The notes below the pieces were generated by a model that did not search any database, was not told where the DNA came from, and saw nothing but the letters and a program-made list of their open reading frames with translations. Source: a virus (taxonomy: Duplodnaviria; Heunggongvirae; Uroviricota; Caudoviricetes). Taken from it: DNA of 64,000 nucleotides. Both the position numbers and the translations under genes were made by a program. Numbering within the stretch: position 1 is the stretch's first letter; the number at the start of each line of letters is the position of its first letter. The stretch covers positions 23,418-87,417 of the IMG/VR virus record IMGVR_UViG_3300040801_002879; one strand, 5' to 3'. Shown one piece after another: positions 29,179-62,524 of the stretch.

Positions 29179-29254
29179 GTAGTCGTGGGGGGAGTCGAAC
29201 CCAAACCAACCTGCGCCTTATAAGAGCGATGCTCTAACCATTGAGCTACACGAC
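29179..29254 (-). tRNA. tRNA. The anticodon-loop region is TCTTATAA, so the specificity is uncertain (possibly Ile/UAU-like).
   Basis: A perfect 7-bp acceptor stem (AGTCGTG/CACGACT) with discriminator A is present. The D-arm is GCTC-AATGGTTA-GAGC and the T-loop is GGGTTCGACTCC. The anticodon stem is imperfect when folded by eye. Confidence 0.6.
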
Positions 29255-29281
29255 TAAATATATCTTACCACAAATCTTGGG

Positions 29282-49531: not shown

Positions 49532-49848
49532 TATATCCTTCCTCTCATGTACTTAGTAATATCTCGAAAGCCTACACCAATAACCTCAGACCAATCACCA
49601 TCATCGAGATTTTCCACCACATCCCCAATAGACATAGAGGTATGGTCCAACTGGAAGTCTCGGATAGCCTGCCTAGCTTCGCCATTAGGCGACCATATTT
49701 CCCCCTGCATTTGGACAAACACATCTTCCAAGTTCTCTGCCTCTAGGCGCATGATAGGTACATAGCAATTGGTAAAGTCCTCAAGAGCCTGTTCTGTATC
49801 TTGAATATAGTTCCTCTTATACCATACCTGATAATTAGGCATATGCAA
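49531..49848 (-). CDS. Hypothetical protein
   Basis: It is 105 aa. Confidence 0.5.
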   Translation of the reverse strand: MHMPNYQVWYKRNYIQDTEQALEDFTNCYVPIMRLEAENLEDVFVQMQGEIWSPNGEARQAIRDFQLDHTSMSIGDVVENLDDGDWSEVIGVGFRDITKYMRGRI

Positions 49849-50215
49849 ACATCCTTTCTAACTGTTCTGGAATATCGTAAAAATTGCAGTACTGATTCCT
49901 ACCCCCTGTATAATCCTTCTCATGTTCCGCAGTGCGAATGAGCAAGCGTTCAAACCATGAGTCCTGCCAGTAGCGCACATCTGAGATAGAGATATACACC
50001 CAACGGTCAAGGCTTTCATTGTACAGGAAACCAGAGGTTGTAAACCAGTTACCCTTCCAGCCTGTTTTCAACTCCCAACCTGTGCCTTTGAGCATACGTT
50101 TAAGGTCTGAACGTGTGTCTCGAATAAACTGAGCAAACGCATCAGACCGATTTTCGTGGGTTGTAGACCAACCCCTGTTATTGAAGTCGTAACCTACCCA
50201 TTTGCGTGCTTTCAT
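49835..50215 (-). CDS. Hypothetical protein
   Basis: It is 126 aa and is the first gene behind the TTGACA/TACAAT promoter near 50243-50275. Confidence 0.5.
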   Translation of the reverse strand: MKARKWVGYDFNNRGWSTTHENRSDAFAQFIRDTRSDLKRMLKGTGWELKTGWKGNWFTTSGFLYNESLDRWVYISISDVRYWQDSWFERLLIRTAEHEKDYTGGRNQYCNFYDIPEQLERMFAYA

Positions 50216-50304: not shown

Positions 50305-50430
50305 CAGTTCCCGCGAAATTTATCTTGATTTCGTATAGTTATTCCCGCGAAAATAAGGGTTTCGTATAGACAAAATATGTGCCATTTCGTATAGCCTAGC
50401 CCAGGAATTTGGGAGCATTTCGTATAGCCA
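50305..50430 (-). repeat. Iteron-like array: four CTATACGAAA words, two of them followed at N7-10 by TTTCGCGGGAA
   Basis: On the + strand, tttcgtatag is at 50329, 50360, 50385 and 50418, and ttcccgcgaaa is at 50308 and 50342. All copies share one orientation. Confidence 0.65.
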
Positions 50431-50461
50431 AACGAAGGGGGAGCTCCGCAAATCGGACTAT

Positions 50462-50653
50462 TTAGGTCCGATAAGGGGAGTTTTCAACCCAACAAAACCA
50501 TGAGAAGGGTGAGGTACGCATCCACCGCCCTGGGTTGAGTTTAGCTATTGCTCGCATGGTCTCAGGGTCTTGGTAGTTCTTATCAAGAACCACGAGCAAA
50601 GCATCTTCATCAATAACCTCAGCAGGTCTGTCACCATAATCAATTAGAAACAT
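50462..50653 (-). CDS. Hypothetical protein. Start adjusted to MFLIDYG.
   Basis: The ATG overlaps the upstream stop in ATGTTTCTAATTGA, consistent with translational coupling. Confidence 0.45.
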   Translation of the reverse strand: MFLIDYGDRPAEVIDEDALLVVLDKNYQDPETMRAIAKLNPGRWMRTSPFSWFCWVENSPYRT

Positions 50654-50834
50654 TTTGCTCCAATCTTTCAATGCGTTCTTTAGCAAGCTTTTTAACTGCG
50701 ATACCTCGTGCAATTGTCTTTCCCTCGTTGACAGCGTTAATGGTGTCAATCAATTCTTGCCAAGCCTCAATAGCTTGTTTGGTAAATCCAGCTCTTTCAT
50801 ATACAAGTGCGGTGTCTAATAATTCTAAAAACAT
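50640..50834 (-). CDS. Hypothetical protein. Start adjusted to MFLELLD, which has a GGAGGA RBS.
   Basis: The Shine-Dalgarno is 7 nt upstream of the internal ATG, and a TATAAT lies about 25 nt further upstream. Confidence 0.45.
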   Translation of the reverse strand: MFLELLDTALVYERAGFTKQAIEAWQELIDTINAVNEGKTIARGIAVKKLAKERIERLEQNVSN

Positions 50835-50888
50835 GTGTTCCTCCATTTCTAAATAGATTATACTTGAATTTCCCCCTATTGTCAAGTA

Positions 50889-51728
50889 CTAATCCCAAGT
50901 AATTCCTAAGATATAGTCGGATGCCTTTTGTGCCAATGATGCGCCTGTGAGTAACATCTGGCGGTCATTCTTGAGCACCTTTAGCCAGTGCTGAATGTAG
51001 GCGGTTGACTGCTGGATGGTATTGTCAATCCCTGCCTCAGCACATAAGAAAGCTGATGTAAATTCTGCCACCAATTCCTCAAGGCTGTACTTCTCATCCC
51101 CGAAAGTATTTTCGATTTTCCGATTGAGACGATTTTCTGCACCAGTGGAGTGTGCTAACTCGTGGAACAGCGCAGAATAAAAGTTGTCGGGAGAATTAAA
51201 ATCTTCTTTCAAAGGCATATGCACCTTATCAGTCGAAGGACTATAGCGAGCACTAATGCCACCAAATTCGATTACAGGAGCATTAGGCATACCCTGTACA
51301 ATCTCTTCTGCTCTCTCAACTGGTTCAAACTCTTCTGCTTTTGGCAAAGACTCGATAATCTCTTCTGCTTCATCAAGCTGTGAAATGGACCAAACCTTGT
51401 AGTAGCGCAACAATGGGAATTTATCACCTGTCTTTTCGCCAGCGTCATCTTTCTTGTCAATCCATTTAAAAAATGCGATATACTGAGGACTTTCACCCTT
51501 GCCAATGCGATACCCATGTTTCTTGATACTCTTGGCGGTAATCCAACGATTGACCCAACCCTCAACGTCTGCGGTATAAGATAATGTAAGCTGGTTCAAG
51601 CCACGATATACTTTGTTACTATCGTGATTGACTGCCCCGCTTGACCATGGCTGATGCCAAGGCAAATCACCCTTTTCCAAACCCTCAATAATCTTTCTGG
51701 TTACAATCTCTCTAATGTCTAATCCCAT
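50889..51728 (-). CDS. ardC: ArdC-like anti-restriction protein (N-terminal ssDNA-binding domain plus C-terminal HExxH metallopeptidase-like domain)
   Basis: The N-terminus (REIVTRKIIEGLEKGDLPWHQPW...YRGLNQLTL) matches the ArdC-N pattern. The C-terminal FHELAHSTGAENRLNRK matches the ArdC zincin motif. Confidence 0.7.
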   Translation of the reverse strand: MGLDIREIVTRKIIEGLEKGDLPWHQPWSSGAVNHDSNKVYRGLNQLTLSYTADVEGWVNRWITAKSIKKHGYRIGKGESPQYIAFFKWIDKKDDAGEKTGDKFPLLRYYKVWSISQLDEAEEIIESLPKAEEFEPVERAEEIVQGMPNAPVIEFGGISARYSPSTDKVHMPLKEDFNSPDNFYSALFHELAHSTGAENRLNRKIENTFGDEKYSLEELVAEFTSAFLCAEAGIDNTIQQSTAYIQHWLKVLKNDRQMLLTGASLAQKASDYILGITWD

Positions 51729-51763
51729 GATTTCTCCTGTTCACTTGTTTGTTAACTGTCTAT

Positions 51764-51834
51764 ATTATACCATTTTTCCGCCACCTGTCAAGCACTTTCA
51801 GAGATTGTTAACCTGTTGTTAACAAAAGAACTCC
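51764..51834 (-). promoter_or_regulatory. Promoter cassette upstream of ardC (GTTAACAACAGGTTAACAAT, then TTGACA-17-TATAAT, then leader TATAATATAGACAGTTAAC)
   Basis: The -35 is at 51787-92 and the -10 at 51764-69. Confidence 0.7.
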
Positions 51835-51885
51835 ACAAATCAGACCTTAATTGTCCAATTTGTGGAGCTCCGCACTTCGTATAGT

Positions 51886-52128
51886 CTACGAAGGCGGTTT
51901 ATTCTTTTCTGCTTTTGCATCTAGTTCCTTTACCTCATCAGCATCCAAGACTATCCTAATATGACGCTCCATGTTTGCCAAGGGGTAAAGCTCAACTATC
52001 CTACTCCCATCCTCATAATTATGAGAGATAAGATAACACTGGTTTTCTGTGTCAAATCCCCACCCATCAGTGTTGACATCCAAATTCTGCACTAAACTTG
52101 TGGTAGGTCTGAATTGAATTGAAGCCAT
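51886..52128 (-). CDS. Hypothetical protein
   Basis: It is 80 aa. It is followed by a hairpin plus T-run built from a GGAGCTCC element. Confidence 0.45.
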   Translation of the reverse strand: MASIQFRPTTSLVQNLDVNTDGWGFDTENQCYLISHNYEDGSRIVELYPLANMERHIRIVLDADEVKELDAKAEKNKPPS

Positions 52129-52267
52129 AATTTTCCTTTCACTAGTGAATAAGAGCTTGTCTTTGGTTCCGATAAGCGTGGGAGTTCATCACCCGTTGTT
52201 TCAAAGGACTTTCACCTTGCCTACGGTGGGATTTTAACCCTTAGTCCCAAAGTCTCCAAGCTCTCAG

Positions 52268-52340
52268 TACCCCTAGAAGGACTCGAACCCTCATTTCCTG
52301 TTTAGAAGACAGGTGCTCTATTCCATTGAGCTATAGGGGC
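52268..52340 (-). tRNA. tRNA-Arg (anticodon UCU)
   Basis: The acceptor is GCCCCTA/TAGGGGT with discriminator A. The D-arm is GCTC...GAGC. The anticodon stem CCTGT/ACAGG is perfect, with loop CTTCTAA. The T-arm is GAGGGTTCGAGTCCTTC. Confidence 0.75.
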
Positions 52341-52429
52341 AAATATCGGGCTGACAGTCCTCCGCAGTTAACTCTAATCGGTAGGTCACTTACGCTCTGC
52401 TTCTTTTAGAAAGACCCGATGTTCTCACG

Positions 52430-52684
52430 CTAGATTGTTGAAAACCGAAATTCTGCTGGCACGCCAACAAGTGAAGAAGGAACACTCACATTGTTCTCAG
52501 GATTGTCCTTGTCCAGATGCAACCAGATAAATCCTGTGCGGTCTGTAACTGTCACAAACGCTGTCTTGTCGTCATAATAGAAGTCTGACCCCGCCACTGA
52601 TTTTGTGGTGTGGCAATCTGTACCCACAAGTTCATTCACTTCACCGTCATATTTTTCAATCGCCAAAAAATAAAATTCATTCAT
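52430..52684 (-). CDS. Hypothetical protein
   Basis: It is 84 aa. Confidence 0.45.
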   Translation of the reverse strand: MNEFYFLAIEKYDGEVNELVGTDCHTTKSVAGSDFYYDDKTAFVTVTDRTGFIWLHLDKDNPENNVSVPSSLVGVPAEFRFSTI

Positions 52685-52743
52685 TTCGCTACTCCTTGTC
52701 TAAATTTGGACTAAATATATTCTACCATAAACCTTACTACTTG

Positions 52744-52944
52744 TCAAGCATAAATTTCAAAGTCATCATTCACTTCATAAAGGTCTGTAATCTCTGCAAG
52801 GGACACATCCTCAAGCATTTCCCATTCTGCCTCGCCTTTAGTTTCATTCTGGCTAGCAATCCTGCGTGCTTCCTCGATGCTATCCGCATCAATAATTGTT
52901 TCCCCTGAGTGTGGTACTGAATAACCTACGTAAAATTTAGCCAT
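52744..52944 (-). CDS. Hypothetical acidic protein
   Basis: It is 66 aa. Confidence 0.45.
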   Translation of the reverse strand: MAKFYVGYSVPHSGETIIDADSIEEARRIASQNETKGEAEWEMLEDVSLAEITDLYEVNDDFEIYA

Positions 52945-53161
52945 TTCTATCTCTCCTTGGTATTCTCTCGATATATTGTTCGATTTTCACTGTGTGCATC
53001 CGACCATCAGCCTTGCGCTCTTTGGTAAGGTGAAAGTTACTTCGCCATGCGTGCCCCTGCTCGCACCACGATACACCTTGGGGACAACGCTCTCTCGAAT
53101 AGACTTCCCCGCCACACTCAGGACAGTGCTCGGTGTCTACATAAATCCTCTCGATTGTCAT
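52937..53161 (-). CDS. Zinc-ribbon protein
   Basis: It carries CPECGG...CPQG..C motifs. Confidence 0.45.
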   Translation of the reverse strand: MTIERIYVDTEHCPECGGEVYSRERCPQGVSWCEQGHAWRSNFHLTKERKADGRMHTVKIEQYIERIPRRDRNG

Positions 53162-53295
53162 TCTTCATCCTCTCTCGCTACGAGCAGAACTTGATTACAG
53201 TCCTCACACTCAACGCATACCTCACCAATCAACTCATAATGAGTTATCACAATCTTGTGACCAACATGCTCAATTAAGATTTCCCAATCATTCAT
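53158..53295 (-). CDS. Small Cys-containing protein. Start adjusted to MNDWEIL.
   Basis: The longer ORF overlaps the upstream gene by 83 nt. The internal ATG abuts the upstream stop. Confidence 0.4.
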   Translation of the reverse strand: MNDWEILIEHVGHKIVITHYELIGEVCVECEDCNQVLLVAREDEE

Positions 53296-53296
53296 T

Positions 53297-53509
53297 TTAA
53301 TATTCCTCCATTGAACCACAACCGAACCTGCCTTCTGCCCTGTCAGCGCACCTGTCGCACTGGTAGCCGAGCTTGACATCCTTAGCGGTCAACTGGTTTT
53401 CTCGACCACATGTAGGACAAGGATACTCACGCTTGCCAGCACGTAAAGCGGAGCGACCCCAAGGGTTTGCAAATTCACTTCTATCTTCGTAACCGTAACC
53501 GTAACCCAT
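53297..53509 (-). CDS. Zinc-ribbon protein
   Basis: It carries CPTCGRE...CDRC motifs and is the first gene behind the promoter cassette at 53544-53606. Confidence 0.5.
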   Translation of the reverse strand: MGYGYGYEDRSEFANPWGRSALRAGKREYPCPTCGRENQLTAKDVKLGYQCDRCADRAEGRFGCGSMEEY

Positions 53510-53543
53510 TTTGTATCTCCTTTGTTGTTTCTTGACTGTCTAT

Positions 53544-53606
53544 ATTATAGGATATTCCAGCGAGAAAGTCAAGGGTGAATTTGGATTGTTAACCTGTTGT
53601 TAAACT
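53544..53606 (-). promoter_or_regulatory. Promoter cassette (GTTTAACAACAGGTTAACAAT, then TTGACT-17-TATAAT, then leader TATAATATAGACAGTCAAG)
   Basis: The -35 is at 53567-72 and the -10 at 53544-49. Confidence 0.7.
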
Positions 53607-53681
53607 AGGACAAATAAGACCAGGATTGTCGCATTTGCGGAGCTCCATTTCGGACTATTTAGGTCCGAATTGGAATATTAT

Positions 53682-53996
53682 TTATCCGATTGCTACCACC
53701 CTATACCAAACATCGTCAATCTTTCTAAGTTTATCACTGCGGAAGTCTGCAATTAAGTTCTGCAAGTCTCCGAGCTCGTAAGGCTCAGGCAGGGACTCGA
53801 CCAGACGCTTAGCATCAACCAGCCCAACCGCCCCATCTAAGGCAAAGCGTACAAATTTTATAGCCCCAATTTTGGTAAAAGTGTCATTCTTATTAAATTC
53901 CATATTTCGTGTAGTATTCATTAAAACCTCTTTCCTGTAGTAGTTAGGGACCCAATCCAACCGATAAGCACAAATATAAGTAGAAAGCCTATACAA
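53682..53996 (-). CDS. Hypothetical protein (TTG start in the ORF track)
   Basis: It is 104 aa. Confidence 0.4.
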   Translation of the reverse strand: MYRLSTYICAYRLDWVPNYYRKEVLMNTTRNMEFNKNDTFTKIGAIKFVRFALDGAVGLVDAKRLVESLPEPYELGDLQNLIADFRSDKLRKIDDVWYRVVAIG

Positions 53997-54004
53997 ACCA
54001 TATA

Positions 54005-54685
54005 CTAGCCCCCCTTTGCTGGTTGCGTACCGTGAATTGTCAGAGCAAATGACTCACCATTTCGAATGTGGTCAAAATCATCGGAAGGCTCATCAATGCA
54101 GGCAGGCGTAAGACCCATAGCCAGAGCATCCTCAACCGTTTCCACGACCTTAACCGCTGGTTCATCAGTCACCATGTTATCGAATACCCCACCGTATGAA
54201 TAAACAAGGCTCATATTTTCAGGCATATCCATTGACACGTAAGGCAACATTTTCGTATAGCCAAAGAAAATAATATCGGGGTTCATTTTAGCAACCTCGA
54301 CCCAAGCCAGAAAATAAGCTTTAGAGTAGAAGTCACCGCTGGCGTGTATACGTACAACCTCAACACGTGCAGGGATGTTATCGCTTATAAGCGTAGCCAT
54401 ATCTTGAATGGACAGACCCTGTAAAGCATCGAAGTTATCCCAATGATTAGAGCGTGCCGAAGGACTGAAAGCCTCAATGCTCGCGGCATAGCATCGGAAT
54501 TGGCAGTCTTTCCCATCTGTGATTTTACCAGTTTCTCGATTGGCAGTGGACTTGCAAATTTTAGCCGCTGGACATGTGTGACCCGCAGGCAGGTCAAACC
54601 CAACCACGTGTGTTTTAGGAATACCTAAATAATCGCCTAGCTCACGAAGTTTACGATTATTCTTAGAAAAATGAAGTGTGCTCAT
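54005..54685 (-). CDS. Hypothetical Cys-cluster protein
   Basis: It is 226 aa with GHTCPAAKICK...CQFRCYA motifs, and is the first gene behind the promoter cassette at 54720-54791. Confidence 0.55.
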   Translation of the reverse strand: MSTLHFSKNNRKLRELGDYLGIPKTHVVGFDLPAGHTCPAAKICKSTANRETGKITDGKDCQFRCYAASIEAFSPSARSNHWDNFDALQGLSIQDMATLISDNIPARVEVVRIHASGDFYSKAYFLAWVEVAKMNPDIIFFGYTKMLPYVSMDMPENMSLVYSYGGVFDNMVTDEPAVKVVETVEDALAMGLTPACIDEPSDDFDHIRNGESFALTIHGTQPAKGG

Positions 54686-54719
54686 TAGTGCCTTTCTTGA
54701 CTAGTTGATTGTAAGTACT

Positions 54720-54791
54720 ATTATACTATCTCACCGCCAGAAGTCAAGGGTAAAAAGCACCAATTTTCCATCGTTAACAATCTGTTAACAT
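54720..54791 (-). promoter_or_regulatory. Promoter cassette (ATGTTAACAGATTGTTAACG, then TTGACT-16-TATAAT)
   Basis: The -35 is at 54742-47 and the -10 at 54720-25. Confidence 0.65.
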
Positions 54792-54903
54792 TCCCCCGTT
54801 AATTCGTATAGTCTAGCCCCCAGGAATTAGGACAAATAGGACCAACTTTGTCCGATTTGCGGAGCTCCACATTTTTATTAACCTGTTGTTAACATTCCAA
54901 GCC

Positions 54904-54931
54904 TTGACAAGCCACGAGAAAAGAGTATAAT
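54904..54931 (+). promoter_or_regulatory. Sigma70-type promoter TTGACA-16-TATAAT for the gene at 54962
   Basis: The hexamers are consensus and are followed by the conserved TATAATATAGATAGTCAAC leader. Confidence 0.7.
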
Positions 54932-54961
54932 ATAGATAGTCAACAATAAAGGAGTTTTGAA

Positions 54962-55165
54962 ATGACAGAACGATGGGTAGAATCTGGTAAATTAGTTTTT
55001 CATGGTGGACAGTGGGTTTACTGCTTCACCACCTATGCAGGAGCAAAGGCTCATGCTAACCTAATGAACGCCTGTTCTTATAAATTTGAATATCGAGTGG
55101 AAAAAATAGACAATTTTTATTTCATTGGTATATATGATGAAGGAAGTTTCTGGACATACCACTAA
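54962..55165 (+). CDS. Hypothetical small protein (+ strand island)
   Basis: It is 67 aa, with its own TTGACA-16-TATAAT promoter, a conserved leader and AAGGAG. Confidence 0.55.
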   Translation: MTERWVESGKLVFHGGQWVYCFTTYAGAKAHANLMNACSYKFEYRVEKIDNFYFIGIYDEGSFWTYH

Positions 55166-55258
55166 TAAATACTCCTAATTGGACCTAATTAGTCCAGTTA
55201 CGGAGCTCCGCAATTCAGACTATTTGGGTCCAAATTGGGAGATTTTCAGGGGGTTTTC

Positions 55259-55435
55259 ACACTTCTTCACGCATTTTTCGCTTTCTTTCACGCTGTTTCT
55301 TGCGCTTAATTTCCTCTGCACGCTCACGCTGTAGGCGTTCAATCAGGAAGACGGACTTGCTCCCAACCGTCATACCGTTCCGTTGTTTGTTGCGTTTCTT
55401 GTCACGCCTGCGCTGTTTATCAATCTGGTAAGCCA
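55259..55435 (-). CDS. Highly basic protein of 58 aa (below the ORF-track cutoff): MAYQIDKQRRRDKKRNKQRNG...
   Basis: I translated it by eye. About 45% of residues are Lys/Arg. It has a GGAGAGGATTAAAATG RBS. Confidence 0.4.
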
Positions 55436-55437
55436 TT

Positions 55438-55659
55438 TTAATCCTCTCCTATAGGATAATAATTGTGTTGTTCAAAATCAAAAATATATGTTACTGGTTT
55501 GTCAACTTCCACGACCCGCCACTCATCTACACCCATCCAACGAGAAAATAAATCTCTCGCATAAGCTTCTGCCTCTTTCTCTGTGGCAAAGACTAAAGCG
55601 TTAGTATAGAATTTTTGTCCACCGATTTCCTTAAATTCTGCTTGAAAAGCCATGTTCAA
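55438..55659 (-). CDS. Hypothetical protein
   Basis: It is 73 aa. Confidence 0.45.
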   Translation of the reverse strand: MNMAFQAEFKEIGGQKFYTNALVFATEKEAEAYARDLFSRWMGVDEWRVVEVDKPVTYIFDFEQHNYYPIGED

Positions 55660-55698
55660 CTCCTTGTTGACTAATGTATAATAATCTTACCATGTCAC

Positions 55699-55884
55699 TT
55701 AGGAATTGTCAAGGGGCAATTTATAATCATCATCATCGGGCATAATTACGTCAACCAATTCCCAATCAGGGAACTTTTGACCCGCGAAATTTTTAAGGTC
55801 ATTTCGTGTAGTATTTTCGGGCACATCTACTGCAATCTCTTTAAATTTAGTCTTAGCTAAAATTACTCTAATTCGTATAGTCAT
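55699..55884 (-). CDS. Hypothetical protein; its start lies inside a duplicated AAGGAGCTCCGATGACTATACGAA module
   Basis: It is 61 aa, beginning MTIRIRV. Confidence 0.45.
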   Translation of the reverse strand: MTIRIRVILAKTKFKEIAVDVPENTTRNDLKNFAGQKFPDWELVDVIMPDDDDYKLPLDNS

Positions 55885-56008
55885 CGGAGCTCCTTTCGTA
55901 TAGTCATAGAGAGCTTGGTCTATGAAGCAAAGTCAGGAATCTCACCTAGTCGTGGACTGTAACCCATTAGCACTAGCGTGCCCGCATACATAGAACCAAG
56001 CCCTCTTA

Positions 56009-56089
56009 GTGGAGCCCGCAGGAGTCGAACCTGCTTCTCACCTAAGTACGTCTACCTAGGGTGCACCCTGCTGATTAAGAGTCGAGCCC
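56009..56089 (-). ncRNA. tRNA-like domain RNA with alanine identity elements and no anticodon arm (resembles a tmRNA tRNA-like domain)
   Basis: The acceptor is GGGGCTC/GGGCTCC with a G3.U70 wobble and discriminator A73. The T-arm GCAGG-TTCGACT-CCTGC is perfect. The 5' part GGGGCTCGACTC...AGCAGGG resembles the tmRNA 5' end. A sigma70 promoter lies about 100 nt upstream at 56197-56225. Confidence 0.45.
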
Positions 56090-56196
56090 CATAAATTATA
56101 TCCAGTGCCCGCCCACCGACACCGATGTTAGCCCGCCCATACACCTATTGGCTAACGCCCTCATCAACACAATCAAGGAGAAACATCACTATAAAG

Positions 56197-56225
56197 ATTA
56201 TAACACATATACTGATGTTTGTCAA
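56197..56225 (-). promoter_or_regulatory. Sigma70 promoter TTGACA-17-TATAAT driving the transcript that ends in the tRNA-like domain RNA
   Basis: The -35 is at 56220-25 and the -10 at 56197-202. No ORF lies downstream. Confidence 0.6.
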
Positions 56226-56232
56226 GTACTAA

Positions 56233-56305
56233 TTCGTGGCTGAGGATTTGAACCTCGTCTGCCTAACAGACCGCCCGCTTTTATTTTTATTCAAGCAACC
56301 ACGAA
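56233..56305 (-). ncRNA. tRNA-like element (non-canonical cloverleaf)
   Basis: A perfect 7-bp acceptor (TTCGTGG/CCACGAA), a T-loop GAGGTTCAAATCCTC and a hairpin GTCTG-TTAGG-CAGAC are present. The D-arm is A-rich and irregular. Confidence 0.35.
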
Positions 56306-56308
56306 ACG

Positions 56309-56366
56309 AGTCGTAGGGGGGATTTGAACCACACCATTCTCTAGTAGTCTTGTCCATTAGACGACT
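56309..56366 (-). ncRNA. Minimal tRNA-like element of 58 nt, related to the tRNA at 29179
   Basis: The acceptor AGTCGTC/TACGACT and T-loop GGTTCAAATCC are present. It shares AGTCGT...CCCCCC(N)ACGACT ends with the tRNA at 29179-29254. Confidence 0.3.
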
Positions 56367-56609
56367 ACAACTCTCAGTTATCTTGCGCTTGATAACTTTT
56401 CGTGGGAGAGCAGGGGTTTTCACCCTGATGCCTGTAGCCATCCCCTCTTACAGGCGTTCTCTCTCGGAGACTTCACTCATCTAACGAGACTTCTCACCCG
56501 AAAAATCATCAAACTAATGTTAAAGTTCTGGTGACTGTCAGTGTAAGCCGATTGCTATAATCTGATTACAAGTTTCCGACCTTTGCCGATTGCTTGCCTG
56601 TCACCTAAC
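56367..56609 (-). ncRNA. Promoter-driven structured non-coding RNA of about 240 nt, upstream of the tRNA-like elements
   Basis: A sigma70 promoter (-35 at 56639-44, -10 at 56617-22) sits upstream. No ORF longer than 35 aa is present. Several perfect hairpins are present (GCCTGTA..TACAGGC, GTTATC..GATAAC, CAGGG..CCCTG), plus a long-range GGTGACAG/CTGTCACC pairing and repeated GCAATCGGC and GAAGTCTC words. Confidence 0.45.
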
Positions 56610-56665
56610 TATTTATATTATACCAGCTTGCCTAGAGAAGTCAAGCACTTTATGTTAACGTTTTG

Positions 56666-56911
56666 TTATTCCTCTACGTAATACTGAGTAGTAATTGTAA
56701 GCGTGCCTTCTTCCTCAATATGCTTTGCGATATGAGCAAGCGCATCTAAAGCAGGATTTTTTGATTTTACCCAAGCCTCATCTTTAACAGATGTTTCTAT
56801 AAAAGCTTCGCTTTCGGGAAATATATTAAGAGTATATTCTTCTCCCTCTTCGCCCAATGGTGCATAATTTTTCTGCGTAATTTTAATAAGACCTAAGTGT
56901 AGTTCTTTCAT
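56666..56911 (-). CDS. Hypothetical protein. Start adjusted to MKELHLG, which has an AAAGGAG RBS.
   Basis: The promoter -10 (56944-49) lies inside the longer ORF version. The internal ATG has a good Shine-Dalgarno. Confidence 0.5.
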   Translation of the reverse strand: MKELHLGLIKITQKNYAPLGEEGEEYTLNIFPESEAFIETSVKDEAWVKSKNPALDALAHIAKHIEEEGTLTITTQYYVEE

Positions 56912-56943
56912 CCGTAACTCCTTTGTTGTGGTTAACTGTAATA

Positions 56944-57005
56944 ATTGTACCACCTATCTATAGTATGTCAAGGGTGTTTTGAAGTTGTTAACAATCCGTT
57001 AACAT
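56944..57005 (-). promoter_or_regulatory. Promoter cassette (ATGTTAACGGATTGTTAACA, then TTGACA-16-TACAAT)
   Basis: The -35 is at 56966-71 and the -10 at 56944-49. Confidence 0.6.
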
Positions 57006-57103
57006 TCGCCAGGAATAAGATAAATAAGACCTAATTACTCCAATTTACGGAGCTCCAAATCGGACAATTACAGTCAGAATTATCCGATTTAGATTTCGTA
57101 TAG

Positions 57104-57838
57104 TTATTTCATTATCTGCTCCTTTACAAAGTCCATGGTGCGGGTTTCCAATTCCTTTTGTAAAATTCTATCAGGCTCTTGTGCTTTGAAAAAAGCCTCA
57201 ACCTGCTCAAACTTGCGCTTGTGCCAATCATCAATCAAAGATAAGAATACAGCTAATTCTACCTCATTATTCTTAATCTTCATTAACATCCTTCTAAAGC
57301 GTGAGTCACTCTCAAACCAAAACGCCTCATTCATAGGCATACCGCTTGCCACTCGCTCCGCTAATAATAAAACTCTCAAAGCGTGGTGAGCATCCTTAGT
57401 ATCATAACCAAACTCATCAACAATAGGTTGAGTCTTTGCAGTACCTTTGTATAAGGTGCTCATTTTTTCTCGGTGCATCCCCAAGCAAGCAAACCCAAAG
57501 GAGCGCAAATGAATTTTTGAAATTCTATCAGCATTTTCTTTCAACCAAATAGGAAACCCACCAATACCACCATGAAACTTAGTTGAGAATAAAACCTCAA
57601 CAAAATTTGGATTAGCTTTCCATAACAAGTGAGATAATTGTCGGATGTCATGTACCGTATAATCAAACTCATCGGACTGCTTGCCATTAGAGAACATCCT
57701 ACCCTTGTATAAGTCCTCAAACGTGGGAGCAACAAAGAACTTCCAGTCCTCATCACTCGCAGGCGTGTTTAGATTATAGTTATGCGACCCTGTTAATGCT
57801 TGAATTATAACTCGTCTACCACCAAATCGTTCTGTCAT
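57104..57838 (-). CDS. Pol-beta-superfamily nucleotidyltransferase (RlaP/DUF-type, about 245 aa)
   Basis: The N-terminal motif ALTGSHNYNLNTPASDEDW fits hG[GS]x9-13Dx[DE] of minimal nucleotidyltransferases. The size fits stand-alone nucleotidyltransferases. Confidence 0.6.
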   Translation of the reverse strand: MTERFGGRRVIIQALTGSHNYNLNTPASDEDWKFFVAPTFEDLYKGRMFSNGKQSDEFDYTVHDIRQLSHLLWKANPNFVEVLFSTKFHGGIGGFPIWLKENADRISKIHLRSFGFACLGMHREKMSTLYKGTAKTQPIVDEFGYDTKDAHHALRVLLLAERVASGMPMNEAFWFESDSRFRRMLMKIKNNEVELAVFLSLIDDWHKRKFEQVEAFFKAQEPDRILQKELETRTMDFVKEQIMK

Positions 57839-57839
57839 T

Positions 57840-58046
57840 TTAGTCCTCTTTCAAGTGTTCAATTTTAGCTTTGATTATGTTCAGCGCATCCTCACGACCC
57901 GCCCAATACAATTCTGCATCACCACCACCGCAAGCGTCAAAGTTGCTCTTAGCGATTGTAATATCTCGGTCAATTGCTTTCAAAATCTCGTCTACTGTCA
58001 TGTTTATCTCCTTTAGTTGATTAGTTATATTATACCATCTTGCCAC
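57840..58046 (-). CDS. Hypothetical protein
   Basis: It is 68 aa and starts 2 nt after the upstream stop. Confidence 0.45.
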   Translation of the reverse strand: MARWYNITNQLKEINMTVDEILKAIDRDITIAKSNFDACGGGDAELYWAGREDALNIIKAKIEHLKED

Positions 58047-58156
58047 AAGAAGTCAAGGGTAAATCCCAAATCTGATAAATCGGATAAGATTTGTCTGAAT
58101 TGGAGCTCCGCAATTCGGACAATTCCCCTCTTATTTGTCCTATTTGCGGGCTGTGC

Positions 58157-58432
58157 TTACACATCTAAGGCTCGTACAACCTCTATCAAAGCATAGTCAT
58201 AGCAGTCATCCACATAGACCACATTAACCCGACTGGTAAACCATCGCCCAGGACCATTACTACCAGCAGGAACATGCCCTGTAGTATACATAAACAGCTC
58301 TCTAACATCTTCTTTGTCCTCTGGCAAAGGACCATCACATCTATCCTCTGCTACCATTCTAAAGAGGTTTACGCCTACATCTTGGTGTAATAAATAACCG
58401 CCAACCTTCTCAATCCTTACCTGTATATCCAT
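58157..58432 (-). CDS. Hypothetical protein
   Basis: It is 91 aa. Confidence 0.45.
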   Translation of the reverse strand: MDIQVRIEKVGGYLLHQDVGVNLFRMVAEDRCDGPLPEDKEDVRELFMYTTGHVPAGSNGPGRWFTSRVNVVYVDDCYDYALIEVVRALDV

Positions 58433-58683
58433 TAGTCACTCCACTCCATTCTATCATAAAATGCGCCAGCGTTCATTTCCATGGCTTGCTCTAGTACATC
58501 CATATCCTCATCACCAAATAACTCACGTTCTGCCTCTGCTACTTCCTCATCGGTGCAGTAGCTGTGACTTCCACACTCAGGGCACTTGCCTTCGTAGACT
58601 TCCTCTACGTACTGCGTGCCACAAGCGTTACAATAAACCCAATTGACTTCCACTAAATCGCCATTCCAATTTCGTACTGCCAT
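58432..58683 (-). CDS. Zinc-ribbon protein
   Basis: It carries CNACGT...CPECGS motifs. Confidence 0.45.
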   Translation of the reverse strand: MAVRNWNGDLVEVNWVYCNACGTQYVEEVYEGKCPECGSHSYCTDEEVAEAERELFGDEDMDVLEQAMEMNAGAFYDRMEWSD

Positions 58684-58945
58684 TTTGTCTCCTTAGACTG
58701 TTTGATTGATGTATATATTATAAGCTGCGGGAGCCAGAAGGTCAAGCGATTTTCGGCATCGTTAACAAATCGTTAACATTCGCCTGCGCCTGTCCCTGAG
58801 TCTAAATATGGATAAATCAGACCAGGTTTATCCGATTTCGGAGCTCCGCTAATCGGACTAATCAGGTCCAATTAGTCCAATAAGCCGAGCAAGCCAGCAA
58901 TCAGGATGCCTAAGCCAAACAGTATCATCATGCCTACGACTGCCA

Positions 58946-59124
58946 CTATTCCACCTCTCGCTCTTCAATAATCATCACGCTACGAGCCATGGGGCGCACA
59001 TTATCCAAAGCTTCTACAACCTCAATCTTGCGCTTTTCCTCTTCGGCACGCTCTCTGGTGGCAAAGACTCGCACTTCCCTTGCCCTGTCCTCTCTCTCAA
59101 ACATTATAAATACTTTACCAGTCA
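58946..59124 (-). CDS. Hypothetical Arg/Glu-rich protein. Start adjusted to MTGKVF.
   Basis: The longer version is Met-rich and overlaps the upstream gene by 60 nt. Confidence 0.4.
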
Positions 59125-59321
59125 TCATCATCCTCATCTTCCCAATCGTCATCCCAATCGTCATCACCAATATCAATGTCGCCTAAGCCAAACTCAGCGA
59201 GCTTGCGGTCAATTTCTTCCTCATCCTCATAAAACAGGTCTTCCATCATGTCATTAAATTCCTGTTCTTCTGCCCACATATCAGCTTCTGCATCAAATTC
59301 ATCTGCGTAAAAATCACTCAT
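59115..59321 (-). CDS. Highly acidic Asp/Trp-rich protein
   Basis: It is 68 aa with a C-terminal DDDWDDDWEDEDDDDW. Confidence 0.45.
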   Translation of the reverse strand: MSDFYADEFDAEADMWAEEQEFNDMMEDLFYEDEEEIDRKLAEFGLGDIDIGDDDWDDDWEDEDDDDW

Positions 59322-59784
59322 TGTTTTCTCCTGTAGTCTAAGTTTGTACTTACAATTATACTCAATTTCGCCAGCTTGTCAAGGGTTATCTGGAAAGTCG
59401 TCTTAGTTCCTTCCACATCAGCCCGAACATGAGTGAAAGAATGATTGTACCTACATTCCACACGCCACCTTGGATATAGCTTGCAATCGCTTGAACGGTT
59501 TCAATAATCAGGTTTTCCATCTCGTTTCCTCTCGTGTAGTTGACTGTATATATTATACACCCCTGCCCCTGCCCTTGTCAATAGCAAATTCCAGTTGTTA
59601 ACATAACGTTAACATTCAATTCGGACAATTCGGATAAGAATACTCCGATTTCGGAGCTCCCTAAAGTGGACAATTTAGGTCCAATTTGTCTTATTACATT
59701 TGTCATATCCTGGGTATAACATTCTGCTTGACACAGGAGCTGGCGTATGGTAATATTATTATATCAACAGAACAGGAGAAAATT

Positions 59785-60054
59785 ATGAGCACAGTTTATT
59801 TCCAGAACGCACAGGGCAACTTTGAAATTGACTTATACCATGACTGGGTAGATGAGGTTACAGGGGTTGAAGATGTGAACATCCTGAGCCTGTCAGAAGA
59901 TGCTCAAGAGTACGTACAACGTTTGCAAAACCTTGGCGGTGACGTAGAAGCTCAACACTCAGACGGTGATAAAATCTTATGCGAGCTATTAACAAAGCTT
60001 GGATATGGTGCAGTGGTGGAAGAATGGGAAAAATTACATCGGTGGTATTCTTAA
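59785..60054 (+). CDS. Hypothetical protein. Start at MSTVYFQ with an AGGAG RBS; the ORF track extends upstream from a TTG.
   Basis: A TTGACA-17-TAATAT promoter lies at 59728-59756. The Shine-Dalgarno is 7 nt before the ATG. Confidence 0.5.
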   Translation: MSTVYFQNAQGNFEIDLYHDWVDEVTGVEDVNILSLSEDAQEYVQRLQNLGGDVEAQHSDGDKILCELLTKLGYGAVVEEWEKLHRWYS

Positions 60055-60105
60055 CAATCTGTTAACATAAAATCGCTTGACTTCTCACTGGCAATCGCTT
60101 ATAAT
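60050..60105 (+). promoter_or_regulatory. Promoter cassette: TTAACAATCTGTTAACAT direct repeat, then TTGACT-17-TATAAT, then conserved leader
   Basis: TTGACT is at 60077-82 and TATAAT at 60100-05. The GTTAACA direct repeat is immediately upstream and overlaps the stop codon of the preceding gene. Confidence 0.75.
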
Positions 60106-60138
60106 ATATATAGTCAACTAGTCAAACAGGAGTTTGAA

Positions 60139-60402
60139 ATGAACGAAACATTTGGAATTACATACGAAATTAAAAATCCAGTTCCTTGGCAACCAAACAA
60201 AACGGTGCGAGTGAAAGATACAGGCTTTACAACGATGCACGATGCTAGCTCACGAGCTGGTAAGGAAATCCAGAAACCTTTCATCCAGTCGGTATGCTCC
60301 TACCAGCGTACAGGAAAAAATGCTGGTGCAATCGGTGTGTATCTGGCAAAGGATAGCCAAGGGCACGTGGTCAAGCGTGAGTACAATCCCTCACGTTCTT
60401 AA
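60139..60402 (+). CDS. Hypothetical protein
   Basis: It is 87 aa, with a consensus promoter cassette at 60050-60105 and the conserved AGTCAACTAGTCAA leader. Confidence 0.55.
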   Translation: MNETFGITYEIKNPVPWQPNKTVRVKDTGFTTMHDASSRAGKEIQKPFIQSVCSYQRTGKNAGAIGVYLAKDSQGHVVKREYNPSRS

Positions 60403-60404
60403 CA

Positions 60405-60452
60405 AAACGTTAACATTATAGGCTTGACTTTCAGGGGGAGATAGCCTATAAT
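60405..60452 (+). promoter_or_regulatory. Promoter cassette (GTTAACA repeat, then TTGACT-17-TATAAT)
   Basis: TTGACT is at 60424-29 and TATAAT at 60447-52. Confidence 0.75.
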
Positions 60453-60482
60453 ATAAGTACAGTCAACTAGTCAAGGAATTTT

Positions 60483-60740
60483 ATGAACACACGAACAGCT
60501 TATAAATTTGAAAATAAAGAATATACCACATGGGACAGCCTGTGTGAGGCAGTCGCTGAGGCACATCCTGAGCTATTGGATGATAGCATGGTAGATTTTA
60601 TCGAGTCAGAAGTTGAGGAAATCGAATATACAGCTTGCTATGCTTGCGGAGATTTTATCCCCAACACTGCACCCCCATTCCTCAAAGAAAAGGGTTGTTG
60701 CTCATGGCGTTGTATACAGGATTTGTACGATTATTCTTAA
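60483..60740 (+). CDS. Hypothetical Cys-containing protein
   Basis: It is 85 aa with CYACGD...CCSWRC motifs, and a consensus promoter cassette at 60405-60452. Confidence 0.55.
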   Translation: MNTRTAYKFENKEYTTWDSLCEAVAEAHPELLDDSMVDFIESEVEEIEYTACYACGDFIPNTAPPFLKEKGCCSWRCIQDLYDYS

Positions 60741-60790
60741 CAAATCGTTAACATTAGCCCCTTGACTTTTCAGAGCTAAGGGTCTATAAT
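60740..60790 (+). promoter_or_regulatory. Promoter cassette (GTTAACA repeat, then TTGACT-17-TATAAT)
   Basis: TTGACT is at 60762-67 and TATAAT at 60785-90. Confidence 0.75.
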
Positions 60791-60825
60791 ATATATACAG
60801 TCAAACAACAACCAAGGAGCAAAAA

Positions 60826-61062
60826 ATGACATTCGATAATAATTTTTCAGCAGACACCTTAGACGCAAAAGCCGACCAGTGGCAGGAACAGCAGGAAGTT
60901 TTAGCAGAACTGGCAGAAGTGACACGCATTGAGGAAAGCCTCAACGTTTCATTTGAGCAGGCGTTAGAAATTCGCAAAGACGCTTTACAGTCGGCAATCG
61001 ACAACACCAAGAGCGAGTTTGTACGCTCCGACCTTCAAGCAAAATTGGCATTATTAAGCTAA
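60826..61062 (+). CDS. Hypothetical coiled-coil protein
   Basis: It is 78 aa, with a consensus promoter cassette at 60740-60790. It is followed by a terminator. Confidence 0.55.
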   Translation: MTFDNNFSADTLDAKADQWQEQQEVLAELAEVTRIEESLNVSFEQALEIRKDALQSAIDNTKSEFVRSDLQAKLALLS

Positions 61063-61075
61063 ATCAGATAAGATT

Positions 61076-61108
61076 AGTCCAGATTGAGGGTCTGGACTTT
61101 TCTTTTGT
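61076..61108 (+). terminator. Rho-independent terminator (AGTCCAG-attgagggt-CTGGACT followed by TTTTCTTTTG)
   Basis: It has a 7-bp perfect stem, a 9-nt loop and a T-rich tail, at the end of the + strand island. Confidence 0.65.
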
Positions 61109-61154
61109 GGATAAATTGGATATAAAAGGTAGGAATTGTCCACTTCTCCCGAAA

Positions 61155-61232
61155 ATTAAGCCTCGTTTCGCATAGTCATTCTCCCGAAAATTTAAGGCGA
61201 TTTCGCATAGTCAGCGTTTCGTATAGCCAGTA
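61155..61232 (-). repeat. Tandem copies of the bipartite motif (GACTATGCGAAA-N10-TTTTCGGGAGAA, two copies, plus CTATACGAAA)
   Basis: A roughly 35-bp unit is duplicated in tandem and is related to the array at 50305-50430. Confidence 0.6.
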
Positions 61233-61741
61233 GCCTGGGTCCAGGCAACCGTAAATCGGATAAATAAGACCTTTTTTGTCCGAATTGCGGAGCTCCCTAA
61301 ATATGACAAATAGGGTCCAATTAGTCCAAATATAGACTATAAAAAAAGAGCCTTACAGCTCTTTCCTTACTTGAACTCGGATGCCATCGAGAGGTTGGCG
61401 TTCCGCTTGCTTCACTTTCTCGATAGCTTCCTCTTTACTCTCGGCTTCTACGAGCATCTGGTGTCGCCCACCGCCTGACATTGTGTAATATTGTACCTCA
61501 TATAATTTCATTATTTCACCTCGATTGTTGCAAAGATTTTATTTACTGTGTCCTGTACTAGCTTGTCCATTTCACCTGCATCCCCTGTTGCTGAATACTC
61601 GATTATTCCATAATAGTCGTCCCCAAATTTTTCTACTATTTCCATTACCTTGTTTCGTTTCTCTTCTTGTGTCATTTTAAGTCCTTTTCTTGATAAGTTG
61701 ATTTAATATTACCTGATTTTATCGGGGATGTCAAACCCCAA

Positions 61742-62227
61742 TTATTTGGAATTGTGACGCTTGACATACTCGATACGGATTTTAGCCTCAATGGGAGCTC
61801 GCCCCTTATTCTGCCGACCATATCCACAAAACCATAACTCGATTTCCTCACCGAAGTAATCGGATAAAAATTGTCTTAATTCTTCCTCATCCTCGATACC
61901 GTCTACCATCTCGTTCATTTCAGCGGGAAGAGCAATAATTTTCAAATCCCCACCCTCGCAGATGATGAAGTTGTCCATCTCGATGTAGTCGCTAGCAGAT
62001 GTTCCGAAATGGCAAGACTGCCAATCCCAATCAAAGCTAAAATTCGATGGCATCCAAATTTCAGCGAGTAGACCACGATTTAAGTACCGAGCACCTGTTC
62101 GCATTGCGCTTTCATCTTGAATATCGCAAACAATAACCGAACCGCCCATAGCCTCAATTTCAGCGACTGTCATATTTTTGGTAAATTGGACTTTTTTGGT
62201 CTTATTCATCGAGTAGCTCCCTTGCAT
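61742..62227 (-). CDS. Hypothetical protein
   Basis: It is 161 aa. A dense GTTAAYA repeat array lies directly upstream (62280-62340). Confidence 0.5.
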   Translation of the reverse strand: MQGSYSMNKTKKVQFTKNMTVAEIEAMGGSVIVCDIQDESAMRTGARYLNRGLLAEIWMPSNFSFDWDWQSCHFGTSASDYIEMDNFIICEGGDLKIIALPAEMNEMVDGIEDEEELRQFLSDYFGEEIELWFCGYGRQNKGRAPIEAKIRIEYVKRHNSK

Positions 62228-62524
62228 GTGTTAAATATCTGACTGTCTTAATGATAGCACGCCAATATTAACAGAGTATTAACAGCATGTTAAATCTTTT
62301 GACCAATTTTGTTAACATTATTAACAATCTGTTAATATTCTAATTCAGACCTTCTTTGTCCTATTTGTATATGGTTTGTATAACGTGCCAGGAACGATTG
62401 CTGCTCAGTAATTATGGACTATTCGGACCTTTTTTGTCCGATTACTCCCTTGTTGGGCGTTGTACAAAGGTTATACAGCTGACGCGGCTAGCCTCTCGTA
62501 AATTTTTCCCCCAAAATTTTTACC

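Follow-up and report, generated by a model that had tools for sequence, protein, structure and literature searches.

No part of a phage genome is more mosaic than its early region, which also houses most of the unknown host-takeover and anti-defense genes. Cassette exchange within them is understood through few examples, among them the promoter-early stem-loop (PeSL) cassettes of T4-type phages (Arbiol et al. 2010, PMC2839356; Comeau et al. 2014, PMC4122927). PeSLs have a stem-loop consensus that is specific to each lineage, and degraded half copies of them occur (PMC4122927). Here, we describe elements centered on the 8-mer GGAGCTCC (the core) in a 64,000-nucleotide stretch of an uncultivated tailed phage (IMG/VR record IMGVR_UViG_3300040801_002879), referred to below as the window. 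Our best explanation, held with slightly less than even confidence, is that each element is a bidirectional cassette-boundary module, combining terminator or 3'-end hairpins with a constrained junction and resembling a PeSL in its working. This would place a comparable, more elaborate module in an unrelated, widespread, and uncultivated clade from freshwater, wetland, and sediment metagenomes, with three features of note: an apex conserved clade-wide, a junction that switches palindromes by lineage, and direct comparative evidence for replacement and inversion at the modules. Cassette borders in phage contigs from metagenomes can also be recognized by the simple signature that the modules provide.

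Like PeSLs, the elements place a stem-loop just upstream of a near-consensus sigma-70 early promoter and are repeated between small early open reading frames (ORFs) of unknown function, with a consensus that differs by lineage, degraded half copies, and a position where insertions, deletions, and replacements that distinguish close relatives begin or end. The lineage, however, is unrelated to T4: the family-A polymerase is at most 32% identical to any record in the phage collection, and near and distant searches of that collection gave no DNA-level match to the window. The element is therefore PeSL-like in working and not a member by descent. It also differs from PeSLs in structure, with two mirror-image hairpins at an exact palindromic junction instead of one stem-loop, an apex (GGAC paired with GTCC) conserved across the whole clade, and extra boxes, TTAAC-N6-TTAAC and CTATACGAA, between hairpins and promoter. 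Inversions are found here in addition to insertions and deletions. Further traits of PeSLs are residence in the hyperplastic regions of T4-type myovirus genomes and excision of minicircles between tandem elements.

The core occurs 11 times in the 64 kb, always between positions 50440 and 61296, compared to 0.65 expected copies, and 0 of 100 shuffles reached 11. A first-pass annotation of the window had marked these same exact sites; none lie elsewhere, and the consensus computed here is close to the one it gave. All 11 are outside credible genes, in agreement with its statement that copies sit only between genes at 50 to 61 kb. Nine cores directly follow stop codons and lie 45 to 160 bp upstream of promoters matching TTGACA-N16-18-TATAAT at 11 to 12 of 12 consensus positions, and the remaining two are between convergent genes. 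Single-mismatch variants of the core are present in the window at a chance-level count and none bears arms, so the core there is either exact or absent. Copies are 341 to 1,775 bp apart with genes between them, and this spacing, together with the palindromic nature of the elements, bears out the earlier rejection of a CRISPR array.

The surrounding 48 to 64 kb is a series of small, mainly acidic ORFs, almost all on the minus strand, which makes the minus strand the sense strand for the element region. About 20 near-consensus TTGACA-N16-18-TATAAT promoters, many with an extended -10, give it the look of an early region transcribed by the host polymerase and made up of many short cassettes, each separately promoted.

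The description of the elements as 11 long near-perfect palindromes proved overstated. Two arms flank the core in seven copies (53639, 55202, 57049, 58102, 58840, 59653, and 61289), one arm is present in three (50440, 51864, and 54861), and one core is bare (55886). Complementarity between the arms of one element is low, with 7 to 21 of the 30 positions nearest the center pairing in ungapped comparison. Outward from the dyad, the arm consensus reads CTCC-gc-AAATCGGAC-(7 nt)-GGTCY-nATTTGTCC, or, with the spacer written out, CTCC-gc-AAATCGGAC-aannnnGGTCy-nATTTGTCC.

Relatives were retrieved using the adjacent GP88-family gene (54005 to 54685) as a handle, which yielded close relatives with GP88 identities of 88% (L005), 87% (L012), 76% (L007), 67% (L010), and 61% (L150), plus 80 additional, more distant loci. 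The search of related phages proposed in the first-pass annotation found elements at syntenic junctions in all close relatives. Across about 60 copies in six phages, the core varies at positions 3 and 6 only and by transitions only, giving GGRGCYCC. The form GGAGCTCC is used by the window phage, L012, L007, and most of L005, while GGGGCCCC is used by L010 and L150. Hybrid cores, GGAGCCCC and GGGGCTCC, occur with normal arms in three copies in L005, five in L150, and two in L010.

More distant relatives have other G+C-rich junctions at the same place, again between hairpin arms. For example, GGCCGGCC is found in L048 (13 copies), GCCCATGGGC in L039, L041, L050, and L051, GGACCGGTCC in L028, GGACCWGGTCC in L020, and ACCCGGGT in L060, and L023 has the nonpalindromic junction GGGA-CCCC-TCCC in the same architecture. 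Because these relatives keep arms and position with different junctions, the hairpin unit is older and more widespread than any one core. The junction is lineage specific, yet tightly held inside a lineage. Two loci, L054 and L055, carry a lone, armless GGGGCCCC between an ordinary terminator and a -35 hexamer, 5 to 20 nt upstream of the hexamer, and GGCC in both loci is essentially confined to these cores. No multicopy counterpart was found in 185,579 reference genomes, where a scan for core plus arm returned 57 single matches in unrelated taxa, at or below chance; these chance-level matches rule out a host-derived origin, whether from host repetitive extragenic palindromic (REP)-like sequences or from a prophage.

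If the whole palindrome folded as one long RNA hairpin, RNase III could cut it to process polycistronic early RNA, as happens in the T7 early region; the first-pass annotation had listed RNase III processing or stability hairpins among the possible functions. The position between early genes suits such a role, and most copies, folded as whole elements, exceed their shuffled versions in stability (z scores of -1.7 to -6.9). However, the predictions show each arm folding locally, with a stem of some 12 bp that falls short of the duplex of roughly 20 bp or more expected for RNase III. In a test of 36 elements from six phages, cognate arms were not specifically complementary, with an alignment score of 8.67 for cognate arms versus 8.53 overall and 9.51 within a genome (permutation P = 0.84). 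Since cognate arms are no more complementary than noncognate arms, the element is not one long hairpin or cruciform. Half elements and a bare core are conserved, and nearly every cassette has its own promoter. With neither selection for arm-arm pairing nor a consensus fold, the proposal of a whole-palindrome hairpin fails, and we give RNase III processing next to no credence.

Each arm is instead its own selected short hairpin, xGGAC-N7-GTCCx, with co-varying stem flanks. Single-arm folds have energies of -11 to -12.5 kcal/mol per 46 nt, whereas shuffled arms reach -5.5 ± 2.7 and chimeric arms -9.4. The window has 12 GGAC-N7-GTCY dyads (1.4 expected), none of them outside 50.4 to 62.5 kb. At the 8 positions around RGAC-N7-GTCY, flank pairing in the window scored 5.08 for cognate flanks versus 3.98 ± 0.36 with shuffled partners, a value reached in 5 of 2,000 shuffles; the corresponding scores were 4.75 versus 4.30 in the close group (3 of 2,000) and 4.54 versus 3.54 in other relatives (0 of 2,000). 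Perfect 12-bp stems are numerous and differ by compensatory double changes, such as cccaattc/gaattggg, cccaatta/taattggg, ccctaatc/gattaggg, and cccaatgt/acattggg. The apex pairs G13-C25 and A14-T24 are invariant in 85 of 85 and 83 of 85 arms, respectively. Of 91 arms examined clade-wide, 16 close with GGRG and then a T-run, the form of an outward-facing intrinsic terminator, and do so in both directions. A further helix between units 1 and 3 (GGACAAA/TTTGTCC) was rejected, with 60.5% paired versus 60.9% in shuffles, and likenesses of the arms to DnaA boxes and to IHF or Fis sites seen by eye were dropped as poor matches.

The module that we propose would form the boundary between independently promoted early-gene cassettes. 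It consists of two mirror-image hairpin units, each with the conserved apex (GGAC/GTCC with a 7-nt A/T loop) and a variable, co-varying lower stem, and the abutting G+C-rich stem bases of the two back-to-back units create the palindrome GG-AGCT-CC. In the transcript, the unit beyond the center would face outward and either terminate transcription or form the 3'-end hairpin. Such a role is likely for single arms, and termination or 3'-end protection would be what arms are selected for. Because the module is symmetric, it would serve transcription from either side, which could explain how it fits after stops, before sigma-70 promoters, and at convergent or divergent junctions, also after an inversion. 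Cassette exchange would be a side effect, with the module as its substrate.

Single elements resemble known bidirectional terminators, with a symmetric G+C hairpin flanked by an A-run and a T-run at 55202 and the same layout in one direction at 51864 and 50440, but most copies differ from them in having no U-tracts. Ordinary terminators are not known to share one unchanged 8-mer from copy to copy and from phage to phage, whereas here the 8-mer is identical across phages with GP88 proteins diverged to 61 to 88% identity.

Several observations weigh against a boundary module built from terminator or 3'-end hairpins. Most arms are without a U-tract, and a canonical terminator in the sense direction is seen in the window only at 51864 and 55202. 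The copy at 61289 lies between two ordinary terminators and thus may hardly be transcribed. RNAalifold over 85 arms returned no common fold or shared register, and column shuffling mostly accounted for the pairing in the named helix. Fold energies showed no significant strand bias, sense and antisense arm folds being equal (P = 0.62). The ratio of G-U to A-C on the sense strand, 59:34, is nearly predicted by composition alone, which leaves a modest excess of A in the sense-strand loops of well-paired hairpins (151 A versus 99 T) as the sole strand asymmetry. Finally, a role as stem base explains neither the complete invariance of six of the eight core positions over some 60 copies from six phages nor why lone, armless GGGGCCCC cores stand in L054 and L055, where GGCC is otherwise avoided.

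The junction is constrained far more tightly than a stem base needs, and recognition by a symmetric protein, or repair or recombination centered on the dyad, may be the cause. That a symmetric protein recognizes the junction as double-stranded DNA is suggested by six positions that are held almost absolutely and by the lone cores in L054 and L055. KorB at its OB sites is a named precedent for group regulation of this kind. The core, and perhaps also the GGAC-N7-GTCC dyads, could thus be operators through which a symmetric phage protein regulates or insulates the early promoters as a group, an explanation that we regard as unlikely but as a serious contender. Protein and sites would co-evolve, so that the core would differ by lineage, and arm hairpins could keep their roles alongside.

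In its favor, many near-identical short palindromes lie between genes or upstream of promoters; no inexact core with arms is present in the window; variation among relatives is limited to positions 3 and 6, which cannot pair inside one hairpin; and the full palindrome is retained where one or both arms are lost. The lone cores 5 to 20 nt upstream of the -35 hexamer, the near-invariant G13-C25 and A14-T24 pairs of the arm dyad, and the periodicity of 10.5 to 11 bp in arm G+C content also speak for operators. However, asymmetric hybrid cores are tolerated, the L023 junction is not palindromic, and cores lie anywhere from 5 to about 160 bp from the promoter, with two having no promoter nearby. 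Searches of 81 ORFs at 22 to 64 kb with Pfam and PHROGs, and of the called genes of relatives, found no helix-turn-helix, ParB-type, or other DNA-binding family, although the majority of early ORFs could be assigned to no family and some 23 kb of the genome lie outside the window. The sole match of a DNA-binding type was a weak one to a "transcriptional regulator" in a 52-amino-acid (aa) ORF at 61353 to 61511 (E = 2e-4). No gene family tracked core presence in a presence/absence profile of 42 loci, a weak test since the loci are partial. An operator for a dimeric regulator, as suggested by the first-pass annotation, is compatible with a core that is exact and varies symmetrically (positions 3 and 6); no binding protein was found.

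Operator arrays in other phages offer a measure. Cluster O mycobacteriophages have 34 invariant copies of the 17-bp palindrome TGTTCGGNNNCCGAACA, a presumed protein site (PMC4351075), and the stoperators of Cluster A phages are shown protein sites that affect transcription (PMC9283540). The common ground with the present cores is a short, exact, cluster-specific sequence in tens of mostly intergenic copies per genome. Cluster O sites, however, are genome-wide, without hairpin arms or a fixed relation to promoters, and stoperators are asymmetric and orientation dependent and belong to temperate phages with a known repressor, of which none is known here.

Comparison of the close relatives places the elements at the borders of exchanged DNA. 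Every plus-strand gene in the region is bracketed by cores, 54962 to 55165 by those at 54861 and 55202 and 59686 to 61062 by those at 59653 and 61289. A slot just upstream of GP88 is present in all four close relatives, always between two cores, and its contents are three unrelated gene sets: the window encodes a 67-aa product there, L005 encodes products of 69 and 62 aa, and both L012 and L007 encode a 154-aa protein. The block 59686 to 61062 is inverted, with reversed gene order, relative to L007 and L010 and is bounded by cores in both the window and L007. The cassette at 49835 to 50215 follows a different element in L007. Because each element is palindromic, any two copies are both direct and inverted repeats, and exchange between them can delete, replace, or invert. 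Considered as repeats without orientation, the modules fall exactly where replaced and inverted cassettes of related phages are bordered, and PeSL-like recombination hot spots, one of the functions raised in the first-pass annotation, are borne out as an evolutionary outcome.

The same borders could mark a dedicated site-specific system, similar to a shufflon or an integron, in which GTCCGATTTGC-GGAGCTCC-GCAAATCGGAC would act as binding element, 8-bp crossover spacer, and binding element. A need for identical spacers would explain the exact core, and a palindromic spacer would permit both inversion and excision. The 11-8-11 layout of inverted binding elements around an exact spacer is present, arms degenerate within a genome while the core stays exact, inverted blocks and the replaced slot are bounded exactly by cores, and the hybrid cores are clean half-core chimeras. 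Nevertheless, single C-to-T transitions explain the hybrids equally well, and the L054 and L055 cores are without any binding arms. Neither the window ORFs at 22 to 64 kb nor the annotated genes of L005, L007, L010, L012, L150, and L152 yielded an integrase, resolvase, or invertase domain, all of these genomes being incomplete. Homologous exchange between repeats of 60 to 90 bp by the Erf/Rad52-type annealing protein (22061 to 22840) would suffice, and we consider a dedicated recombination system very unlikely.

Somewhat broader, and in our view quite doubtful, is the idea that the junction is read by a symmetric protein dedicated to it, which could be a recombinase, a nuclease, or a regulator of early genes at large, and that junction identity (GGRGCYCC, GGCCGGCC, GCCCATGGGC, and others) defines compatibility groups. 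Were this true, self-contained cassettes with a promoter and terminators of their own in a large uncultivated clade would be excised, swapped, and inverted in the manner of integrons or shufflons, and the palindrome chosen by a lineage would be constrained by the restriction sites that it has to avoid.

Avoidance of short palindromes is extreme in the window. GATC, GGCC, and CCGG are absent (175, 87, and 40 expected, respectively), and CGCG occurs 12 times (51 expected); among six-mers, GAATTC, GATATC, and GGTACC are absent (25, 20, and 16 expected, respectively), as are ATGCAT, CTCGAG, and ATCGAT. Palindromes were also counted in L005 to L152, and GATC is absent from every related locus checked. 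Such counts indicate hosts rich in restriction systems. The absence of GGCC from the window fits the A/T form of its core, and the junction palindrome of each lineage holds only sites that the lineage tolerates, with L054 and L055 as exceptions.

The core could itself be a restriction-modification or methylation target, for example, of the phage C5-methyltransferase encoded at 32284 to 33327 on the minus strand, where methylation would modulate adjacent promoters or protect an indispensable site. A GRGCYC-type specificity would fit the GGRGCYCC variants, and exact specificity with symmetric R/Y degeneracy is typical of restriction-modification enzymes. The C/T change at the variable position is that expected from deamination of a methylated cytosine, the core is kept although the genome shuns many short palindromes, and GAGCTC outside cores is scarce (5 observed versus 11.9 expected). 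However, the target-recognition region of the methyltransferase is conserved in phages with GGAGCTCC (the window and the L007 contig) and in a phage with GGGGCCCC (the L150 contig), so that in this one test it does not co-vary with the core. The junctions GGCCGGCC and GCCCATGGGC do not match GRGCYC, and the confinement of the target to cassette borders is left unaccounted for. We therefore see scant probability in the link to methyltransferase or restriction that the first-pass annotation had listed. The motif VIII-IX region of the enzyme is almost invariant across homologs of 67 to 100% identity, including phages with different cores. Cleavage at GGAG by T4 RegB was dropped because relatives use GGGGCCCC.

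In enterobacterial chromosomes, REP units are imperfect palindromes of about 35 nt that form bacterial interspersed mosaic elements (BIMEs) as inverted pairs with a short linker, and they are thought to stabilize upstream mRNA and to bind proteins. Here, too, imperfect palindromic units are paired in opposite orientation across a linker and lie between genes or at their 3' ends, as REP units do. They differ in being phage borne, in numbering about a dozen copies, and in having no GTAG motif, and domain scans of the window ORFs found no RAYT or Y1 transposase domain.

Individual elements show how the module is combined with promoters and genes. The half element at 50440 to 50485 has the core at 50440 to 50447 and one arm (dyad GGAC-N7-GTCC at 50455 to 50469) closing with GGGGAG and then TTTT on the plus strand; it lies after the stop of gene 50462 to 50749 (minus) and upstream of promoter 50280 to 50253 (minus). 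A second half element, 51817 to 51871 on the minus strand, has the core at 51864 to 51871 and one arm. Its minus-strand fold (51871 to 51827) has a 19-pair stem and a 7-nt loop followed by TTTGTT, with an energy of -43.9 kcal/mol and a z score of -6.9, and this terminator-like form agrees with the intrinsic terminator that had been called at 51.86 kb. It lies after gene 51886 to 52128 (minus) and upstream of TTAAC boxes and promoter 51791 to 51764 (minus). The full, two-armed element at 53603 to 53692 lies between the stop of gene 53682 to 53996 (minus) and TTAAC boxes with promoter 53572 to 53544 (minus).

The next two elements border the inverted one-gene slot. On the left, the half element at 54820 to 54868 (arm and core) is common to the divergent promoters 54747 to 54720 (minus) and 54904 to 54931 (plus). 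On the right, the full element at 55163 to 55250 separates the convergent genes 54962 to 55165 (plus) and 55257 to 55436 (minus), and both of its arms are CTCC...GG(G)AG hairpins with T-rich tails, one per direction. The bare core at 55886 to 55893 is 1 nt upstream of the ATG (55884) of gene 55699 to 55884 (minus), with ATGACTATACGAA duplicated on both flanks, at the place where a duplicated gene start had been noted (55.88 kb). Since the L012 and L007 orthologs keep an arm at this site, the arm has been deleted in the window phage; L005 has GGAGCCCC there.

Farther along, the full element at 57014 to 57092 follows the stop of gene 57104 to 57838 (minus) and precedes TTAAC boxes and promoter 56971 to 56944 (minus), and that at 58068 to 58150 follows gene 58157 to 58432 (minus), 45 nt upstream of the -35 hexamer of promoter 58056 to 58029 (minus). 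The full element at 58805 to 58886, upstream of TTAAC boxes and promoter 58745 to 58717 (minus), has the best sense-strand fold of the set (-48.7 kcal/mol, z score of -6.2). A possible 19-codon hydrophobic micro-ORF (MMILFGLGILIAGLLGLLD) was read by eye next to it at 58887 to 58946 (minus), with its stop codon within the outer unit of the 58840 arm, and the corresponding DNA is similar in L005 and L007.

The inverted three-gene block (59686 to 61062, plus) is bordered by full elements at 59618 to 59700, between divergent promoters at 59581 (minus) and 59728 (plus), and at 61252 to 61335, between two ordinary convergent terminators (61076 to 61098, plus; 61370 to 61339, minus) with no promoter near. 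Three arm-type dyads without a core lie beyond: GGAC-N7-GTCT at 62188 to 62202, overlapping the start of gene 61742 to 62227 (minus); one at 62347 to 62361 in the control region at 62.24 to 62.52 kb; and TTCGGACC-TTTTTT-GTCCGATT at 62425 to 62439.

The rest of the window has tail-fiber genes at 1 to 22 kb on the plus strand and, on the minus strand at 22 to 48 kb, genes for the family-A polymerase, primase, DnaB-type helicase, Erf/Rad52-type annealing protein, endonuclease VII, RtcB, and C5-methyltransferase. Fragments identical to the window were found in JGI metagenomes. A pattern scan of IMG/VR gave a single match, dismissed as a coincidence within zinc-ribbon coding sequence, and a protein-based scan of the same database gave no match. 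A distant protein match of GP88, 33 to 39% identical to Synechococcus phages, together with the shunning of GATC, GGCC, and CCGG, would be consistent with a possible cyanobacterial host.

Two proteins are conserved anchors of the early region: the GP88-family protein itself (54005 to 54685, minus), with an invariant Cys cluster, and an ArdC-like anti-restriction protein (50889 to 51728, minus) with ArdcN and zincin peptidase domains. In relatives, the early region is headed by a short RuvA-like protein (RuvA_N plus HhH, about 140 aa, no domain III; L007 2337 to 2750, L010 34 to 453, and L150 1 to 177). A tblastn search did not find its gene in the window, and it may lie beyond 64 kb, a direction in which look-ups gave either no sequence or contigs of just 1 to 1.5 kb. 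A junction-binding RuvA-like protein beside hairpin-rich DNA may be relevant. Two further small proteins stand out by composition. The 59-aa product of 55257 to 55436 (minus), which adjoins the core at 55202, has 23 Lys/Arg residues and is kept in 15 related loci, with and without cores, and the 68-aa product of 59115 to 59321 (minus) has 34 Asp/Glu residues and is possibly a DNA mimic.

An RNA-repair set is encoded on the minus strand, comprising RtcB ligase (35026 to 36243), a nucleotidyltransferase of the RlaP family (57104 to 57838), tRNA-Ile(TAT) (29179 to 29255), and tRNA-Arg(TCT) (52267 to 52340). The combination of ligase, nucleotidyltransferase, and two tRNAs suggests a countermeasure to host anticodon nucleases. 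An Rfam scan of the window returned only two tRNAs at the gathering threshold. Several motifs resembling T-arms (GGTTCGA/GGTTCAAATCC type) lie in the gene-free stretch at 55985 to 56450 (minus), which is served by promoters of its own (56225 and 56644). Within it, the Rfam match to the tmRNA/tRNA clan at 56007 to 56090 (minus) is weak, at 20 bits versus a gathering score of 47, and ARAGORN made no calls in 55985 to 56450; judging from the motifs, degenerate or unusual tRNA-like RNAs may be encoded there.

Two other repeats accompany the early promoters. One, TTAAC-N6-TTAAC (GTTAACAAnnnGTTAACA), is a tandem direct repeat with a period of 11 bp that is found at some 20 places from 33656 to 62336, with 39 strand-matches versus 8 expected, for example, at 51807 to 51823, 53588 to 53604, 54773 to 54789, 56987 to 57003, 58761 to 58777, 60050 to 60066, 60398 to 60414, and 60736 to 60752. 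Its proximal box lies about 10 to 15 nt upstream of the -35 hexamer, on the strand of the promoter, whichever that is. Unlike the GGAGCTCC elements, the repeat is found at 33 to 46 kb as well, and it also occurs in L005, L007, L010, L012, and L150. Its TTAA-N7-TTAA spacing is that of the boxes of CtrA- or OmpR-type response regulators. The 9-mer CTATRCGAA has 14 copies (0.7 expected), 13 of them at 50.3 to 61.2 kb and all of these on the sense (minus) strand, at 50330 to 50427, 51876, 54803, 55872, 55895, 57095, and 61167 to 61226. It is strictly oriented, unlike the cores, and in arrays with 25- to 33-bp spacing (50308 to 50430 and 61150 to 61230) it alternates with TTCCCGCGAAA. In L041, a relative with CCCATGGG cores, CTATRCGAA directly flanks the core.

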